Below, piece after piece: positions 2,159 through 8,595 of a stretch of 8,598 bases of DNA (the stretch's first letter is position 1; every line of letters begins with the position of its first letter). The stretch lies in the IMG/VR virus record IMGVR_UViG_2802429224_000018, one strand, 5' to 3'. The DNA comes from a virus. Its lineage: Duplodnaviria > Heunggongvirae > Uroviricota > Caudoviricetes. A program made the position numbers and the translations under genes. The notes under the pieces were generated by a model, which was not told the origin of the DNA, made no database searches, and was given only the letters and a program-made list of their open reading frames with translations.

Positions 2159-3088
2159 TCAGTAGTTATGTATTGAAGGAGGTAATTCTTTATTCTTAAG
2201 TCTCATCCATGCGGAAAGATTCGTTGGTCCGTCTGGCTCATTGATATCAACATCTCGTGTGTGATTGATTAAAACGTCTCTCGCCATTCCGATAACATAC
2301 GAGAACTCATGACCATAGTCGTAGCATCTGCCGGAATAGTTCGATTGAATTTGTTTTAGCGCCGGATACAATTCGCGGAATAATGCCTGTGAGCGGTTGG
2401 CATAATCCCATAACCATACAAGACTGTTTGCTTCTTTTGCAGAAAGCTCGTTGGTTTTCTTATCTTGTTTGCCGATGAACTCTCCTTCAAGCGGAACGCG
2501 AGCAGCAAGTGACAGTGCTTCGGTAAACTGCTCCTCACTGATTTCTTTGTACGAACATCCAAAATGGGATTTCAGTGACGACCACATGGTGATCATCGCC
2601 TTAGCCTGTTTTTCTTTTGGCAGAGACTGACCGCGACTCATGACGAGTTGTTTAATGGCTTCCTGCTGTTCAGTGGTGATTTTACCCGGCAACGCCTTTT
2701 TAGCTTTGCGTGGGTTAACTACATGGCCTTTAGTCCAGTACTCGTATAGCACATCGTCACACTCTTCCTGATACTGGATTACCTTGTCGCGGATTTCAGG
2801 GCGGACTTTGTTAGGACTGATGGTTTGCAGCCAGCCAGCAAGTTTGCGAAGTGCCAAACAAATAATCTCACGGCACTGTTCATCACCAGGAAGCTGCATT
2901 GTGATTTTCACAATGGAGGTTTTAAACCGTTGCTTTATTTTCGTAAACTGTGAAGCCCAATCCATACCCATTCCCTCAACGATAGGTTTCATTGGGGTGT
3001 ACGGATCACCGTTGTGATTGACGACATAAAGCTCTGCGCCGTGGAATGGCACGTTGATAGTAGATACCGCTGTTGCTATACTTTTCAT
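2159..3088 (-). CDS. ant: Antirepressor Ant (P22 immI-type)
   Basis: 309-aa ORF, ATG at 3088-3086 with AGGAA 9 nt upstream, TGA at 2161-2159. It lies immediately downstream of an Arc-like gene and divergent from an Mnt-like gene, which is the canonical immI arrangement. The N-terminus ([23 protein letters not shown]...) is recalled as P22 Ant-like; P22 Ant is ~300 aa. Confidence 0.8.
3054..3082 (+). promoter_or_regulatory. Psar-like sigma70 promoter inside the first codons of ant, firing antisense
   Basis: TTGATA (3054-3059), a 17-bp spacer, then TATACT (3077-3082) on the plus strand. The predicted start near 3089 is directly opposite the ant start codon. Confidence 0.5.
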
Positions 3089-3160
3089 GTCAATATTTCC
3101 TAAGCCGATTTGTTGATACCGAAGCCCTGACTGTTACAGCAGTTGGGGCTTCACTGTTTT
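3089..3160 (+). ncRNA. sar: sar-like small antisense RNA complementary to the ant ribosome-binding site
   Basis: The Psar-like promoter upstream and an intrinsic terminator (hairpin 3121-3152 plus T-tract to 3160) bracket a ~70-nt transcript. It is fully complementary to the ant Shine-Dalgarno and leader (3089-3105). P22 sar is 68-69 nt with the same placement and orientation. Confidence 0.55.
3121..3160 (+). terminator. Intrinsic terminator of the sar-like RNA
   Basis: GAAGCCC (3121-3127) pairs with GGGCTTC (3146-3152); the stem can extend to ~13 bp with two G-U pairs around a 6-nt loop. It is followed by ACTGTTTTGATTTCTTT on the plus strand only; the minus-strand side is not U-rich. Confidence 0.55.
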
Positions 3161-3320: not shown

Positions 3321-3461
3321 TCACACTGTTACCCCCTCCCTCTTCAGGCTGTCCAGCACCCGTTTAATTACTTCTGCGCTGAATGAGCGACACTCTTCCT
3401 TTGCTTTTTCTTCAAGAATTTTTTCTAGCTTCTCTGGCATACGCAGTGTTTTTACCTTCAT
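3321..3461 (-). CDS. arc: Arc-like ribbon-helix-helix repressor (46 aa); not present in the supplied ORF track
   Basis: Manual translation of the minus strand: ATG at 3461-3459 with GGAGGA 4-5 nt upstream, TGA at 3323-3321. Product is MKVKTLRMPEKLEKILEEKAKEECRSFSAEVIKRVLDSLKREGVTV, which aligns with P22 Arc as recalled (NLRWPREVLDLVRKVAEENGRSVNSEIYQRVMESFKKEG): L-R-x-P, A-x-E-x-x-R-S, E-x-x-x-R-V and K-x-E-G are conserved. It is upstream of ant and divergent from mnt. Confidence 0.8.
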   Translation of the reverse strand: MKVKTLRMPEKLEKILEEKAKEECRSFSAEVIKRVLDSLKREGVTV

Positions 3462-3480: not shown

Positions 3481-3540
3481 GGTACGCATACATAGTATTT
3501 AGGTACGCATTGATAGTCAATAGATACCTACATATCCTGT
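3481..3540. promoter_or_regulatory. Divergent Pant/Pmnt promoter-operator region
   Basis: Minus strand (Pant): -35 TTGACT (plus 3520-3515), 17-bp spacer, -10 TACTAT (plus 3497-3492). Plus strand (Pmnt): -35 TTGATA (3510-3515), 17-bp spacer, -10 TATCCT (3533-3538). The two -35 boxes overlap within the palindromic core TTGATAGTCAA. Around it sits a 31-bp imperfect palindrome centred at 3515 (TAGGTA...TACCTA outer arms, 11 of 15 arm positions symmetric) and a 15-bp direct repeat GGTACGCATnnATAG at 3481-3495 and 3502-3516. Confidence 0.55.
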
Positions 3541-3566
3541 GGTAAAAAATTATTCAGGATGTGCCG

Positions 3567-3818
3567 ATGTCTGATCGTAAGTACAAAAACCCTCAAGTGA
3601 ATCTGAGGCTTCCTGTAGAGATAAAGGAACGTCTTATTGAACTGGCTGAGGCTAATTCTCGTTCATTAAATGCCGAGATGGTCGCGGCACTTGAAGCATG
3701 GACCGAAAAAAATAAACACATTCAAGCACTAGACCTTGCAACTATAGCATCACGATTGATAGATCTTGAACGCGATGTTGAGACGCTAAAGACCATGTAT
3801 GGTAAGGATGAAAAATGA
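3567..3818 (+). CDS. mnt: Mnt-like ribbon-helix-helix repressor (maintenance of lysogeny; represses Pant)
   Basis: ATG at 3567 with AGGA 7 nt upstream; the track's GTG at 3561 is too close to the SD. 83 aa, TGA at 3816-3818. NPQVNLRLPVEIKERLIELAEANSRSLNAEMVAALEAW aligns with P22 Mnt as recalled (PHFNFRMPMEVREKLKFRAEANGRSMNSELLQIVQDAL). Same length as P22 Mnt and divergent from arc. Confidence 0.85.
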   Translation: MSDRKYKNPQVNLRLPVEIKERLIELAEANSRSLNAEMVAALEAWTEKNKHIQALDLATIASRLIDLERDVETLKTMYGKDEK

Positions 3819-4024
3819 ACAAAAAACAGTTTATTAAGTCAACAACGTCAAGCAAGGAAGAGCTAGAGAAGGAGCTAAACTCCCTGAAATATGCTCTGTG
3901 CCTGGTTTACTCAAGACTGCCAATGGAAGATAAAAACGCCATTTACAATGAAATGATTAGCAGCCTTGATTTTAACGATAGAGACCTAGCATCCCACCTC
4001 AACAGCTTCCGCGTCCCTGAGTAA
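3815..4024 (+). CDS. Hypothetical 69-aa protein, translationally coupled to mnt
   Basis: Its ATG (3815-3817) overlaps the mnt TGA (3816-3818) in an ATGA junction; AAGGA 6 nt upstream; TAA at 4022-4024. Predicted soluble and helical; I recognise no family. Confidence 0.6.
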   Translation: MNKKQFIKSTTSSKEELEKELNSLKYALCLVYSRLPMEDKNAIYNEMISSLDFNDRDLASHLNSFRVPE

Positions 4025-4184
4025 TTCTGTTGCGGATTTGCTTCTTGCGGTGGTTTAAGCTGGAGAGCTTGGCTTCTGCTTCTGATATTTGTGCATCAAG
4101 ATCTTTAAGCTCAAGATCTGAAAGTCGCTGGTCAAGCAAGGTTTGGTTCAACTCAATGTTGTTCAGGCGTTCTTCTATGGTCAT
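3999..4184 (-). CDS. Hypothetical 61-aa charged coiled-coil protein
   Basis: ATG at 4184-4182 with AAGGTG ~5 nt upstream. Heptad-like, Leu/Glu/Asp/Lys-rich sequence (LNNIELNQTLLDQRLSDLELKDLDAQISEAEAKL). Its 3' end overlaps the 3' end of the 3815-4024 ORF by 26 nt. Could be a chance ORF. Confidence 0.35.
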   Translation of the reverse strand: MTIEERLNNIELNQTLLDQRLSDLELKDLDAQISEAEAKLSSLNHRKKQIRNRITQGRGSC

Positions 4185-4209
4185 ATTGTCACCTTAGTGG
4201 GAGGTTGGT

Positions 4210-4509
4210 GTGAAGCGATGGGTTATAGGTGCATTCTGTTTTCTAATTAGTGGTCTTGCACAATCGCAAGATAAGGATCTGAAATTTGCTAACGACATGT
4301 TAGTTACAGCTAAAGTTGCTGGCATGTGTGGAACATTTAAACAAATGTTTGCTTTTCAAGAAGCAACCCAGATGCCAGGCGGAGATGAATTTATTGAACG
4401 TTTTTTGAATACGGAAATTTCTCGCCTAGGGATGTCACTTCAAGAGTTCATGAAGTTGTGCACAGATTCTATAGAGTCATACAATAAATTAAAAAGGATG
4501 TCAGAATAG
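4210..4509 (+). CDS. Hypothetical secreted (signal-peptide) protein, 99 aa
   Basis: GTG start at 4210 with GGGAGG 5 nt upstream. N-terminus MKR-WVIGAFCFLISGLAQS-QDK has the n/h/c organisation of a Sec signal peptide; the mature part (~80 aa) is helical with two Cys. TAG at 4507-4509. No recognisable family. Confidence 0.6.
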   Translation: MKRWVIGAFCFLISGLAQSQDKDLKFANDMLVTAKVAGMCGTFKQMFAFQEATQMPGGDEFIERFLNTEISRLGMSLQEFMKLCTDSIESYNKLKRMSE

Positions 4510-4523
4510 CCATCCATGGCTAT
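4506..4523. repeat. Perfect inverted repeat ATAGCCAT-cc-ATGGCTAT (8-bp arms)
   Basis: Read directly from the sequence. It overlaps the stop codon of the 4210-4509 ORF and sits just upstream of the SD of the mini-ORF, between the convergent accessory cassette and the gp16-like gene. Confidence 0.35.
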
Positions 4524-4535
4524 CTGGAGGTTAAT

Positions 4536-4604
4536 ATGGTAACAATCGGTTGGATTATTGTTGCCCTGCTTGTTGCTCTGTGGGCAAAGAATCGTTACTA
4601 CTGA
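4536..4604 (+). CDS. Candidate 22-aa hydrophobic mini-protein ([22 protein letters not shown]); not in the ORF track
   Basis: ATG at 4536 preceded by GGAGG with a 6-nt spacer; a single predicted transmembrane helix with a basic/aromatic C-terminus; TGA at 4602-4604. Caveat: its last 50 nt are antisense to the 3' end of the gp16-like gene, and antisense of Gln/Glu-rich coding sequence tends to look hydrophobic. Confidence 0.25.
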   Translation: MVTIGWIIVALLVALWAKNRYY

Positions 4605-6723
4605 GAAAAGCGACAATACCAACGCGGGCTAGATTTTTCTTCTCGTCCGCTGATAGCGTATTTACCCAATCCCTATATGGTTTCACTTTCTGCATTGAAG
4701 CATCCACCGATTTCCTAGAGGCTGGGGTGCTGGCGTGACCTGCGGCAATCCTTTTTGAGAGATTTTTAAAAGCCGGAGATGCTATTAATTCATCAGCGGC
4801 AGCCATTCTTGAGTTTTTACCAGAACGGAGGAGGCTAAAGAGTACCCCTGCCGTACCGGCTCCAGGCGCTCCAATGGCTGTGGTTAGCCCTTCTGCTTTA
4901 GCCACGTCTTTTCCTATTCCATATATACGCCCAAGCATTCCCTTCTCTCCTGCGAACTGATTCATCATCCGGTCAATTTGAGAGGAGGAATACACCTTCT
5001 CGCTGCCCACCCTTTGCATGCCAGAAGCCACCTCATAGATGTTTCTCAACCTACGCGTAGCCGGATAGCCAATTGCCCGGCTCAATGCCTGCATATTTGA
5101 TTTGTTTCTTGATAGCCCTTCATACCACTTAACAAACCCAGGAACACCAAGTGACTGCCCGGGAGATTTAGCGAACGTAGTGAAAGCCCTATTCATTGCG
5201 GTGGCAACAGCTGGTTGCACCATGTCATCAGGAAGATTTGAAACTAGGCGACGGAAGTCACCTCCCTTTCCTTGAGACATATCGACGATAGCTTGCTGTA
5301 ATTGCGGCACTATTCCTTTATCCAAGTCTCTGCCAAGATTTTGAACAGCGGCTGCCTGTACTGCGAATCTCTTTCTCCCGATCTCTCTAGCTAAATTCCA
5401 TGTATCCTCTGCACCATATTTGGCAGCAGCGGCTCCCTGATCTTGTATCAGTGCGCTTTCAATAATTCCAAGGTGCCGAGCGTCGATGCCGCTATATGGC
5501 CCTTTATCCATCTCTTTGCCAAGAGCCCTTCCAACCTGTCGTCGAACTGCATCAAGAAGACCATAAGTCGGGGCGGTGTTTGGGTCTATTTGTTCCAAGG
5601 TCTTTGACAGTTGAGGATATAGCGATTTTAGTTTTTCTAGCCCACCGACATCATCTGCAATATCCTCAATGGCGTTAGTGGTATGGGTGGTATCTACGGT
5701 AGCTCTTGTTGGAATTTTTGCTCTAATTTGATTGTATAGAGTGTCTTCTTGGCGCTTCAGGTTTGATCTTAACTCCTCATAAGAGCTTTTTACCTTTTGA
5801 TTGATAAAGTCCTTATCAACGCTCCCACCAAAATCATTAATAAATTTATCTGCCTGCTCTCCAAGCCTACTAATGGCCTCTCGCTGTGCGTGGAACAGTT
5901 TATTCCCTGGGGTTGCAGCTAAAGCATTTTCAAACGCGCGGTAAGAAGGGTTGCTGGAGTACATGCCGGGAGTTAAGGCATCTTCCATCCCAAGATTGCG
6001 GGCGGCCTGTAGCACAGAATCATCTGGTGAAACAGCTTTCGCGAGAGCATTTAAACCAGATCTGTTTCCTGTTATTGGATTCACATCTGTAGCTTTCGTT
6101 GCAACCCTCGCCATTCCACTAAGTTCAGATGCCTGAGACATTTCTGCCGATGGAGGCTTAAACCTCTTCGTAACCGCACTGGCTGCTTTGCTAATCACTG
6201 GAGATGCCAATTCAGCAATTGGACCAGCGGCAGCACCTATAGCCGCCCCTGTAGTTACATTGCCACCGGTTCCGTTAGCAACAACACCACCTTCAACAGC
6301 GCCAAGCCCTGCGGCGGCAGCCAGCCTTGCCGCCCCTTTCGGAACCTGAGAAATAATCCCACCACCACTAACAAATGGCGCTGCTTGTCCAACAAACTCA
6401 CCAACATCTTGTGCGGTTGATGGTTTTGCCGCTAACTTCTGCTGTAGAGACTGAATTGCGGCTTGCTCTTCTGGTGTCATATCCTGAAACAGGCCAACAC
6501 CTTTACCAATATCCATCAATCCACTGAGAACACCATACATAAAACGGTCGAAACCGTTAGCATTATTAACAACATTTTCCTGTCTGGAATTTTCCTCTGG
6601 CGAAACCAAAGGTGATTGCTGCTGTTCTGGTTGGGCATCAAGCACAAAACCATCAGGAAGCTGTGAGTTATCAGGCTGATTATCGAGAACAAAGCCTTCG
6701 GGTAAACCTACATCGGTTGCCAT
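4555..6723 (-). CDS. Ejection (DNA-transfer) protein, P22 gp16-like
   Basis: 722-aa ORF, ATG at 6723 with AGGAA 7 nt upstream, TAA at 4557-4555. It is the third of three consecutive late genes directly upstream of the immI module, matching the P22 order 7-20-16-(sieA)-mnt-arc-ant-9. Ala/Gly-rich internal stretches. The start overlaps the preceding gene's stop by 16 nt. Confidence 0.75.
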
Positions 6724-8051
6724 TGTCCGTTCCTGTAAATGAGTTTCTGACCAGTTTTAGGGTTCGTTGCCGTCGCGCCTTCTGATATCCCACTTGGCGC
6801 AGCTTTTGTCTGCCCATTACCACCTTGTGGTGTAGGCTGCGCTGGGACATCGTCAAATAGCTTGGCCTTCCTTCTCCCTAAGCTTTTTTTCAGCCCCTGA
6901 GGAATAGTATCTCCATACGTATCCAGATATTCGTCTACCTGCTGGTTAAACTGCTGCCCCATAGCGTTGGCGTTAATTTTTGCTGCGTTAACAATGTTAT
7001 CCCTCGCTTCCTGTGACAAGCCATTCCCTGCATTAAGCTGGTCTACATATCCTTTTATCTGCCCCCATATGCCATCAGAGCGCATAACCTGAACCTGTTC
7101 ACCTTCGCGAACAACTGACTGAGGGTCGAGAGACTTCATGTAATTAAAGATAATCCCAAGTTGGGCAGCGCCAGTATTTACCTTGCTAAGGGCTTGCAGA
7201 GAGTTTGCCGCCGCTCTGACAGAGTTATAATTTTTGCCAAAATTGGTAATGTCAGAATTTAATCCCTTAATTAAGTCTGCTGACGGCTTACCTTTTTGCC
7301 CCAGCTCCATTAGCTTCAATCCCATCTCATCTGAGTGCATTTGTGCCCGCTGAGCCCTGTCTAGTTGAGCGTTCTGGATATTTGCCCATCCTCTCGCATT
7401 CTCCATATCAGCCTGACGGATGCTTTCATCCAATCGCCCTTTCTCAAGTTGGCGACCAACCATCTTATCCTGAACAGCAAACGCCTTTTCTGGTCCAAGC
7501 GCACCGAGAGACATAGTAGTCAGCATGTGTGATAGCTGCTCTGGATTCTGAATACCTGTCTGAATCATCCAGTCAGCATTCGCCCCCACGCGATTTAACC
7601 TGTCCTTGTTATCAGTAATGAATTTACTGTAGGCTTCCGGTCCCTGAGAAAGAGCGACGTTAGCCCTCATGGCTAAATCGCCCATATCGTTGCGTTGCTG
7701 CTCATTAAGACCGGAAAACGCCTGTTGTGCCTGTGTAACAAACGCTGGATTTTCCTGGGCAAACTTAAATAGTCCCGATGGATCACCAGAAGCCCATGCA
7801 TCAGCGTGAACCTTATTGAACGCATTAATCGCTTTCTGTTGCTGTTCCTGCTTATAAATATCAGCAACTCCAGCCAGACCACGTAACGCGGTCAGACCAA
7901 CGTTATTTGCACCTGAGCGAGCCAATTCATTGTTTTCGCGGATCAGACCAAGCGTTGCGTTAATGTCGCTTGCCTTTGGCGCATTCTCATTTTGCGTACC
8001 GATGCCAGCCAGAAAACCACCAGAATTAATACCCTGTTGCCACGTAGCCAT
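6708..8051 (-). CDS. Ejection (DNA-transfer) protein, P22 gp20-like
   Basis: 447-aa ORF (P22 gp20 is ~470 aa), ATG at 8051 with AAGGGG 7 nt upstream, TAG at 6710-6708. Middle gene of the three-gene ejection cluster. Confidence 0.75.
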
Positions 8052-8061
8052 TGATTACCCC

Positions 8062-8595
8062 TTAAAACAACGAGCCAAGCAATCCGATACCAGCACCAAT
8101 GCCAGCGCCCCAAGGTGTTGATGTTCCCAAAAGGCTGGCAAGACCTGCACCGGCAATCGCACCGGACGTTCCGCCACTAATTGCTGTCTGAAGACTTGAT
8201 GGTTTGTTGGCGTTAGCAGCGGCAAGTGCTGCGCTTTGCTGTGCAATGCTACTCATGTTGTTGGCGTATGTCTGCCCAGCGTTTGCCTGACCTTGCAACG
8301 CACCAAGGCCAATGTTTGCCAGATTGTTGTAGTTGCTCATTTGTCCAGATAGCCATTGCTGACCAAGCGTTGGTGCGATTGTTGCTAACTGATTACTGGT
8401 TGCGGTGGAACCCAATCCACCTGTTGCTTCCGCTGCAGCCAGACTCTGATAGCGAGCCTGACCTGCAAGGTCTTTATACTGCTGAGAGTTGTAATACTGG
8501 TTAAGCGCCTGACCTTGCCCTTCCAGAGACGATAAGTTCTCGAGGCTGCCGACATACTTCTCAGCCAGAGGAGTAAACGGTTTCAGGTTGTTCAT
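8062..8595 (-). CDS. Ejection (DNA-transfer) protein, P22 gp7-like; N-terminus at the window edge
   Basis: 177-aa ORF from the ATG at 8595-8593, TAA at 8064-8062. Gln/Asn/Ala/Gly-rich low-complexity sequence with a hydrophobic Gly/Ala/Leu C-terminal tail (GAIAGAGLASLLGTSTPWGAGIGAGIGLLGSLF), consistent with a membrane-inserting ejection protein. The reading frame is still open at 8598, so the true start may lie outside the window. Confidence 0.65.
   Translation of the reverse strand: MNNLKPFTPLAEKYVGSLENLSSLEGQGQALNQYYNSQQYKDLAGQARYQSLAAAEATGGLGSTATSNQLATIAPTLGQQWLSGQMSNYNNLANIGLGALQGQANAGQTYANNMSSIAQQSAALAAANANKPSSLQTAISGGTSGAIAGAGLASLLGTSTPWGAGIGAGIGLLGSLF

Follow-up and report, generated by a model that had tools for sequence, protein, structure and literature searches.

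Superinfection can be blocked in the bacterial envelope by phage-encoded exported lipoproteins that act on receptors, such as Llp of T5 and Cor of phi80. The T4 Spackle protein (Sp, gp61.3) is a periplasmic inhibitor of the gp5 tail lysozyme and is, to our knowledge, the only well-studied soluble periplasmic exclusion protein. Ivy, PliC/MliC and Tai4/Rap are small, Sec-exported and disulfide-stabilised proteins that act as stoichiometric binders. In phage P22, superinfection exclusion involves the inner-membrane protein SieA (162-164 aa), which lacks a signal peptide, crosses the membrane with three helices and carries an FxRYPxEAxxFNK motif on the cytoplasmic side; its gene is found in the map order 16 (+), sieA (-), orf59a (-), mnt (-). 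Among sequenced P22-like phages, sieA is carried by 22 of 66 (PMC10883804). In P22-like prophages, the gene described here occupies the sieA slot in place of sieA. It is a true accessory gene, or 'moron', of such a prophage and belongs to an uncharacterised family, which extends well beyond the phage members of PHROG 19844.

The DNA that was analysed (hereafter the window) is a stretch of 8,598 nucleotides from the IMG/VR virus record IMGVR_UViG_2802429224_000018 and corresponds to the right end, in reverse orientation, of a prophage of the P22-like (Lederbergvirus) type. It opens with the tailspike gene (1-1980, - strand), which encodes a P22 head-binding domain (PF09008, E=5.8e-67), and continues with the immI region, composed of ant (2159-3088, -), the sar RNA (3090-3155, +; Rfam RF00262, 62 bits) and arc (3321-3461, -). 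Rfam reports only the sar RNA in the window, and an RNA element within 4210-4509 was rejected on this basis. A promoter-like site resembling Pmnt is located at 3510-3538. The mnt-type gene, encoding an Arc-family repressor (PF03869, E=3.2e-10), lies on the + strand and ends at 3818; it starts at 3561 or at 3567, the latter being the RefSeq start codon of a 97%-identical prophage. Its stop codon is overlapped (ATGA) by the start of orf69 (3815-4024, +; phrog_16466, function unknown), which is followed by orf61 (3999-4184, -) and by the candidate coding sequence (4210-4509, +), downstream of mnt and on the same strand. The far edge of this accessory slot is formed by a convergent gene for a gene 16-type ejection protein of 722 aa (4555-6723, -; phrog_6704, E=4.8e-231), whose identity is also backed by synteny with the ejection-protein genes gp20 (6708-8051, -; PF16928, E=3.7e-108) and gp7 (8062-8595, -). 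As the preliminary description of this DNA had stated, the candidate adjoins and converges with the ejection-protein genes; all three of these lie on the - strand. The nearest isolated phage is the E. coli phage Kapi1, with 97.8% identity across 76% of positions 3500-4700 of the window, and its gene product Kapi1_059 is 99% identical to the candidate protein. A full-length prophage match, at 97.4% identity, is present in an E. coli O20:H12 chromosome, and the RefSeq coding sequence WP_022630937.1 occupies the same position as the candidate in the 97.4%-identical E. coli prophage.

The candidate ORF comprises 99 codons and begins with a GTG codon, located 5 nt after a ribosome-binding site that can be read from the sequence (GGGAGG, 4199-4204, +). 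The ORF had been considered probably real from its leader, and this judgement is upheld on other grounds: besides the GTG codon and its ribosome-binding site, protein-level relatives are found at E=1e-20 to 1e-30, which identifies the + frame as the coding frame. The local G+C content is 38%, compared with 46-50% in the flanks. Upstream, the motif GGAGGTTGG(T/C)GTG is retained in 10 of the 12 related loci that were compared, while loci L006 and L031 carry GGAGATTGGTGTG in its place. The start is preceded in most relatives by a conserved element of about 35 nt, ggtatcctgctcaaaactaaggaggttggtGTG, within which TGGTATCCT could serve as a candidate extended -10 site. In the window, 185 nt antisense to orf61 separate mnt-orf69 from the candidate; neither a consensus promoter nor a terminator was found in this stretch, and no clear sigma-70 promoter was found upstream of the candidate. 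At the 3' end, the stop codon is overlapped by an 11-bp hairpin (4501-4527; fold energy -20.4 kcal/mol, z=-2.5) that contains a perfect 8-nt inverted repeat (4506-4513 / 4516-4523). Because the hairpin is followed on the - strand by a T-rich run, CCTTTTTAATTT, it may act as a transcription terminator at the convergent junction with gene 16. In RNA-seq of the Kapi1 lysogen, mnt was undetected and Kapi1_059 does not appear in the list of genes 'not expressed' (PMC12922286).

The N-terminus of the candidate is built like a signal peptide of the Sec/SPase I type (residues 1-17/19; 4210-4266, +), with MKR (K2R3) as the n-region, WVIGAFCFLISGL (13-15 hydrophobic residues) as the h-region and AQS as the c-region, followed by QDKD. 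It shows the features expected of this class, namely a positively charged n-region, an uncharged h-region of 10-15 residues and small residues at -3 and -1, and it contains no twin arginine. A home-made rule-based test accepts the leader and predicts cleavage after A17 or S19. Since the same test also accepts 9.3% of 2124 random six-frame ORFs, the earlier argument that such a leader is unlikely to arise by chance is weak for this single sequence; the claim that a Sec-type signal peptide is present stands nonetheless. Indeed, 113 of 121 full-length relatives pass the test with N-termini that are unrelated in sequence, and it is this maintenance of a signal-like leader despite sequence divergence that makes the signal peptide compelling. 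For example, the relative at locus L009, which is 80% identical over the aligned part, begins with a wholly different, signal-like leader, MLKRNTFINAFFCSIFLLCSSVSQA, which again runs into QDKD. In addition, the GenBank record of Kapi1 carries for Kapi1_059 the remark 'DeepTMHMM: signal residues 1-22, outside 23-103', where residues 1-22 correspond to residues 1-18 of the 99-aa form of the candidate. Altogether, these sequence features indicate that the product is probably exported. A lipoprotein reading was rejected, as the leader does not end in a lipobox of the form [LVI][ASTVI][GAS]C and its sole N-terminal cysteine, Cys10, is preceded by G-A-F. In this respect, the candidate, which is predicted to be soluble and periplasmic, differs from Llp, Cor and Ltp, which are lipoproteins.

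The candidate belongs to PHROG 19844 (E=2.7e-27; residues 12-98 against profile positions 15-101 of 105), the sole library family that it matches, which is listed as of unknown function and is without annotation. While a word-indexed search returned only ten clusters, all but one of them in P22-like prophages, an exhaustive profile search reached about 267 clusters (at 50% identity) with E<=1e-3, of which 177 had E<=1e-10. Almost all members are 95-115 aa long. They share a core that reads AKxxGxCG...FQxxTxMxGGxEFxxRFxxTExxRLG...C...Y, in which K35, G38, C40, G41, F49, Q50, T53, G58, F61, R64, F65, E69, R72 and C84 are 92-100% conserved and Y91 is conserved at 89%; the candidate carries all of these residues, from K35 through Y91. 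Column conservation is highest over the stretch T53-x-M-P-G-G-D-E-F61 (4366-4392, +), which is placed in a loop in the models.

Two cysteines had been noticed in the mature part, and they prove to be a family trait. Cys40 (codon 4327-4329, +) belongs to the G38-x-C40-G41 motif of helix 1, in which the cysteine is conserved at 99%, G38 at 99% and G41 at 93%, and Cys84 (codon 4459-4461, +), its presumed disulfide partner, lies in helix 3. Both positions are cysteine in 113 of 114 aligned relatives, the lone exception having neither, and the mature part contains exactly two cysteines in 108 of the 114 sequences. This paired retention or loss is the pattern expected of a structural disulfide, so that a C40-C84 bond is probable.

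Database comparisons gave little else by which to place the family. Pfam has no match for the candidate, nor any above chance for 114 family members, and NCBIfam has none for the candidate. PADLOC returned for the candidate only a marginal match, to PDC-S48 (E=0.0041, 13.7 bits, over 26 residues), and profile searches of the PDB by sequence gave only chance-level matches (E>=0.24). All the source names that could be retrieved for family proteins read 'hypothetical protein'. A literature search yielded no paper that mentions the candidate accessions or the PHROG, and the gene is not discussed in the Kapi1 papers. Among 50,697 phage records, only those of Kapi1 and S.Kent 1-2-1 contain the gene, and tblastn found no homologue in 72,556 plasmid records. 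The genome-collection scan for relatives was run with a 19-sequence alignment.

The mature domain of 80 aa (4267-4506, +) is predicted by AlphaFold2 to form a three-helix bundle. With an alignment of 60 mature sequences, the model reaches a mean pLDDT of 94.9 and a pTM of 0.76, and its helices span mature residues 2-34, 39-54 and 58-79 (approximately 21-53, 58-72 and 77-98 of the precursor). When the signal peptide was included, with nine sequences, the pLDDT was 82, and 57-59 for the leader. In the model, T53-F61 runs from the last part of helix 1 through the loop into the first part of helix 2. It appears likely from this arrangement that T53-x-M-P-G-G-D-E-F61, together with K35, Q50, R64, E69 and R72, constitutes a binding surface. 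A Foldseek search, which had been proposed as a check in the preliminary description, found nothing below E=0.8 in the PDB or BFVD.

The position of the gene was compared across a set of approximately 37 P22-like loci, all of which carry it, from Logan, ENA, IMG/VR and RefSeq. In every case, it lies downstream of mnt and shares its strand. It either directly adjoins the 3' end of gene 16 or leaves room there for a single intervening gene, whose product is a lipoprotein of 161 aa or a protein of 75 aa. The slots that contain it show at least 12 distinct architectures. Both the slot and the orientation are those of sieA in P22, and no SieA homologue or motif was present in any of the approximately 37 loci. 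In a subfamily that is 47% identical to the candidate, the start codon overlaps the mnt stop codon (ATGA) and the lipoprotein gene follows; the prophage of E. coli O104:H4 2011C-3493 shows this arrangement (WP_000820795.1). Such an overlap implies, for this subfamily, an operon with the lysogeny-maintenance repressor. Unrelated gp16 types, of 702, 707, 722 and 836 aa, accompany versions of the protein whose N-terminal two-thirds are nearly identical.

Beyond the P22-like prophages, the family is stand-alone cargo of mobile elements, among them phage satellites or islands, an integron and other types of prophage, with hosts that include Pseudomonas, Methylophaga, Nitrosomonas and Chromatiaceae. 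Four relatives (L002, L018, L020 and L023) are carried by integrase or AlpA islands, and a relative from Limnobaculum (L014) by an island with a Bro-N gene and a primase-helicase gene (Zn_Ribbon_Prim, Toprim_3, DUF927). In Methylophaga (L015), the relative lies downstream of an ORF for a TPR protein, on the strand opposite to a gene that scores well above the threshold for an integron integrase (TIGR02249, 427 bits; cut-off 265), and is read from the ORF order as the putative second cassette of an integron array. A Pseudomonas relative (L019) is found at a prophage end, beside a cell-wall hydrolase and apparent tail genes, and ORF inspection indicates that L054 resembles this setting. At L050 and L051, the relative is located just downstream of an mnt-like gene in a prophage with apparent lambda-like tail genes. 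Further settings, likewise identified by ORF inspection, are an apparent CRISPR array with cas1/cas2 beside a Nitrosomonas relative (L022), and two ordinary chromosomal contexts, one between apparent scpA and scpB (L021) and one beside an apparent two-component system (L017).

An all-against-all comparison of the neighbours found no gene that recurs beside the family outside the P22 scaffold, and no cognate effector gene was found near family members. When ten neighbouring proteins, picked as suspicious, were submitted to PADLOC, known defence systems were recognised within about 5 kb of three relatives: CBASS at L018, where the cyclase (E=9e-141) is accompanied by a 2TM effector and a nuclease, a type II restriction-modification pair at L023, and RmrT with RmrA (RmrTA) at L052. 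Counting the CRISPR case, at least four of the 16 non-P22 loci have such a neighbour, a proximity that is suggestive only because these 16 loci are a small, hand-chosen sample.

Among the described systems, SieA resembles the candidate in position. Its gene shares with the candidate the slot between mnt and gene 16, the mnt strand and the convergence with gene 16, and the products of both are sent to the envelope (PMC10883804), the export of the candidate being predicted. The two proteins are otherwise dissimilar: the candidate is predicted to be a soluble periplasmic three-helix protein of 80 aa made with a cleavable signal peptide, its only hydrophobic stretch being the N-terminal one of 13-15 residues and its mature part being polar, unlike the transmembrane SieA. 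Homology to SieA was rejected, as both tblastn with the P22 SieA sequence and a search for its motif, run on the window and on all loci, matched only P22 itself. In architecture, the candidate resembles Spackle: the Sp precursor has 97 aa, against 99 aa for the candidate, and starts with a Sec signal peptide of some 20 residues, and its mature form contains two cysteines, as confirmed on the Sp sequence. Homology was again rejected (hhalign probability 0.04%, and no PDB sequence match), and the candidate showed no structural similarity to the solved Spackle structures. Similarly, no sequence or structural similarity to Ivy, PliC/MliC or Tai4/Rap was retrieved.

We advance a tentative proposal, which we consider possible rather than probable, namely that the gene encodes a prophage-expressed, stand-alone periplasmic binder with a general protective role against phage entry or lysins. 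Transcription on the mnt strand probably takes place in the lysogen, and could come about by read-through from Pmnt or, in most relatives, through the short conserved upstream element that includes TGGTATCCT. The 99-aa precursor would then be exported by Sec and probably cleaved after A17 to S19, and its mature 80 residues would fold in the periplasm as a three-helix bundle, probably pinned by the C40-C84 bond. Because the protein has no catalytic motif and the gene has no partner gene, it would most likely act alone, as a stoichiometric binder, and the invariant surface around the loop between helices 1 and 2 is the likely binding face. Its most likely action would be to neutralise a component of an incoming attacker that transits the periplasm, the first candidate being the apparatus with which superinfecting phages degrade the cell wall or form a channel on entry. 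The logic would be that of T4 Spackle and P22 SieA, achieved by an unrelated protein, and the target would probably not be confined to P22-like ejection proteins. A protective role is favoured by the slot, the linkage to mnt, the neighbours found elsewhere and the predicted periplasmic location. The idea of a periplasm-acting exclusion factor, put forward when the ORF was first noticed, is thus plausible, with circumstantial support from the sieA slot, the lack of co-occurrence with SieA, the overlap with the mnt stop codon in one subfamily, the carriage as mobile cargo and the defence neighbours.

The protein could instead be a lysogenic-conversion factor that binds a conserved periplasmic host protein and has no anti-phage role, a reading that we hold to be possible if somewhat doubtful. 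The bound protein might be a cell-wall enzyme, Tol-Pal, or an envelope-stress sensor or receptor, and the outcome would be altered physiology, stress tolerance or colonisation. The invariance of polar residues across distant Proteobacteria points to such a host-conserved target, although across distant hosts these residues fit a target in the invader equally well. Some members do reside in ordinary chromosomal contexts (L017 and L021), and Kapi1 raises the gut competitiveness of its host through unknown genes (PMC8787464). These observations have to be weighed against the strong bias of the family towards cargo positions in mobile elements and towards the sieA slot, and O-antigen modification in these prophages is more simply attributed to the acyltransferase gene located beyond the tailspike.

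It is also conceivable, if unlikely, that the protein is an orphan periplasmic immunity protein or inhibitor, directed against a peptidoglycan hydrolase of a competitor (a T6SS amidase or muramidase, or a bacteriocin) or against host lysozyme. It would then work in the manner of Tai4/Rap, Ivy or PliC, as an acquired defence riding on mobile elements. Small size, Sec export, the conserved cysteine pair and stand-alone carriage on mobile elements and in a putative integron cassette are all in keeping with this, and the highly conserved exposed loop would suit the plugging of an active site.

A narrow, SieA-like exclusion, in which the protein would bind specifically to the gp20/gp16/gp7 conduit and so keep superinfecting P22-like phages from delivering their DNA, seems quite improbable. 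The position argues for it, as the gene has the slot and orientation of sieA, never accompanies sieA in the loci examined and directly abuts gene 16 in the window; moreover, SieA escape mutations map to gp16 and gp20, and the conduit spans the periplasm (PMC10883804). The family is, however, also found in prophages without P22-type ejection genes, in islands and in an integron, and its core residues are invariant, while few P22-like proteins vary as much as gp16 and gp20 do (PMC10883804). Together with the linkage of nearly the same N-terminal two-thirds to unrelated gp16 types, the wider spread of the family and its invariant core disfavour a P22-specific version, and action on the neighbouring P22-type ejection proteins is weakened accordingly. 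That the ORF is spurious, or a decaying and functionless remnant, has a practically negligible probability: the gene is rare (a close form in 7 and a divergent form in 18 of 5426 complete E. coli genomes) and many related prophages keep only its first ~65 nt, but family conservation effectively refutes this reading, hundreds of relatives sharing the length, the signal peptide, the cysteine pair and about 15 near-invariant residues, in addition to the strong ribosome-binding site and the confident fold.

The gene was already present in databases as a hypothetical protein, and its signal peptide had been recorded by the Kapi1 depositors. The present analysis adds the definition of the wider family, the fold, the cysteine pair, the strict location in the sieA slot and the distribution over satellites, islands and an integron. 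Two thirds of the sequenced P22-like phages are without sieA, and this gene is one recurrent occupant of the slot; a relative in the sieA slot resides in a prophage of the E. coli O104:H4 outbreak lineage. Returning to the favoured reading of a periplasmic binder with a protective role, the protein, if it is an exclusion or immunity factor, would be non-homologous to the known systems of that kind. If it protects from the periplasm, it would be a soluble, one-gene addition to the few defences that precede phage DNA entry, and a small, well-folded reagent for studying the passage of podovirus ejection proteins or of virion lysins through the periplasm. More speculatively, and we regard this as rather doubtful, it could be the first example of a widespread and so far overlooked class of anti-phage proteins that are soluble, periplasmic and encoded by a single gene, the counterpart of T4 Spackle in temperate elements. 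With the same reserve, such a class might be traded among prophages, satellites, islands and integrons and might stop more than one phage type at an early step in the envelope, for instance cell-wall penetration or DNA conduit assembly. If a host envelope protein is bound instead, the gene would provide a new lysogenic-conversion factor. Either way, a family of approximately 267 clusters, at present without a Pfam or NCBIfam model or annotation, is brought into view.

The immI region of the window is, in its predicted elements, complete and of the P22 type, since it holds a full-length sar antisense RNA (3090-3155, + strand; Rfam RF00262; score 62.1 bits, gathering score 43; E=5.7e-12) together with divergent, overlapping Pant-like and Pmnt-like promoter sites (3492-3538). 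The ant start codon, at 3088, has the sar RNA a short distance upstream of it. Beyond this region, the candidate is preceded by orf61 (3999-4184, - strand; phrog_7586, E=3.3e-44), a coiled-coil protein gene placed antisense between orf69, whose 3′ end it overlaps by 26 nt, and the candidate, whose start is 25 nt from its own. In some similar prophages, the gene at this position is annotated "hemolysin XhlA family", and the record of phage Kapi1 notes a CDD XhlA motif in its 92-aa form. Since orf61 shares the strand of the late operon, late read-through may be what expresses it. At the other end of the candidate, a strong hairpin (4501-4527) overlaps the stop codon. Given that the T-rich tail of this hairpin falls on the - strand, the transcript that it terminates may be that of gene 16, read from the opposite side, and not that of the candidate.

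In most loci, a short conserved junction, ggtatcctgctcaaaactaaggaggttggtGTG, precedes the family gene. It is found upstream of the gene in L001 (the Kapi1 locus), L003, L007, L027, L029, L032, L034 and L036, and at 4190-4212 in the window, which retains only GGAGGTTGGTGTG of it. In locus L025 (about 4660-4705), the junction apparently stands ahead of a different gene, and the upstream reading frame there has the same KTKEVGV. The junction looks like a P22-type boundary sequence bearing a ribosome-binding site, and it perhaps includes an extended -10 site, TGGTATCCT.

Breakpoints of a mosaic kind also occur inside the family gene itself (4210-4274 in the window; 3211-3272 in L025). In many E. 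coli prophages, similarity to the window stops at about 4274, and only the first ~65 nt of the candidate gene, i.e., the signal-peptide part, are retained; the remnant is followed instead by a P63C-domain gene and a gene for a 109-aa membrane or coiled-coil protein. At the protein level, the family sequences P0004 to P0006 show no difference from the candidate across most of the first 50-60 residues; a sharp divergence follows in helix 3. A few family members carry two tandem copies of the domain behind one signal peptide (P0015, 202 aa; P0139, 208 aa; P0145, 174 aa), and their existence hints that the domain may work as a dimer.

An acyltransferase-family gene is found beyond the tailspike gene in the prophages most similar to this one (1-1016 in L026, where it is a pseudogene; 1224-3134 in L056). 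It is likely the O-antigen-modifying function of these phages, so that no O-antigen role need be assumed for the candidate.

The gene 16 homologue of the window (4555-6723, - strand) matched no Pfam family, including PF26808 (Phage_P22_gp16). The 836-aa gp16 of L009-type P22-like prophages (6249-8759 in L009, - strand) has an N-terminal SLT lytic-transglycosylase domain. The diversity of gp16 is extreme, beside a conserved protein that is predicted to be periplasmic.

Other exported proteins are predicted beside the family gene. Immediately downstream of it in many prophages, among them that of E. coli O104:H4, is a gene for a 161-aa lipoprotein (MKKSLLIIPLLLAGC...; 6190-6675 in L003, 4637-5122 in L040 and 7230-7715 in L056, the last being RefSeq WP_000749286.1). 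This protein had no match in Pfam and no credible one in NCBIfam; the operon may thus encode two accessory proteins that act in the envelope, the lipoprotein being the second. Three small, mutually unrelated proteins with signal-peptide-like N-termini each adjoin the family gene as well: the 60-aa Kapi1_060 (4446-4628 in L001; signal 1-22 in the Kapi1 record), a 129-aa protein (5531-5920 in L009) and a 133-aa protein (5495-5896 in L020, an integrase/AlpA island). The interval between mnt and gene 16, where P22 has sieA, seems to gather exported proteins.
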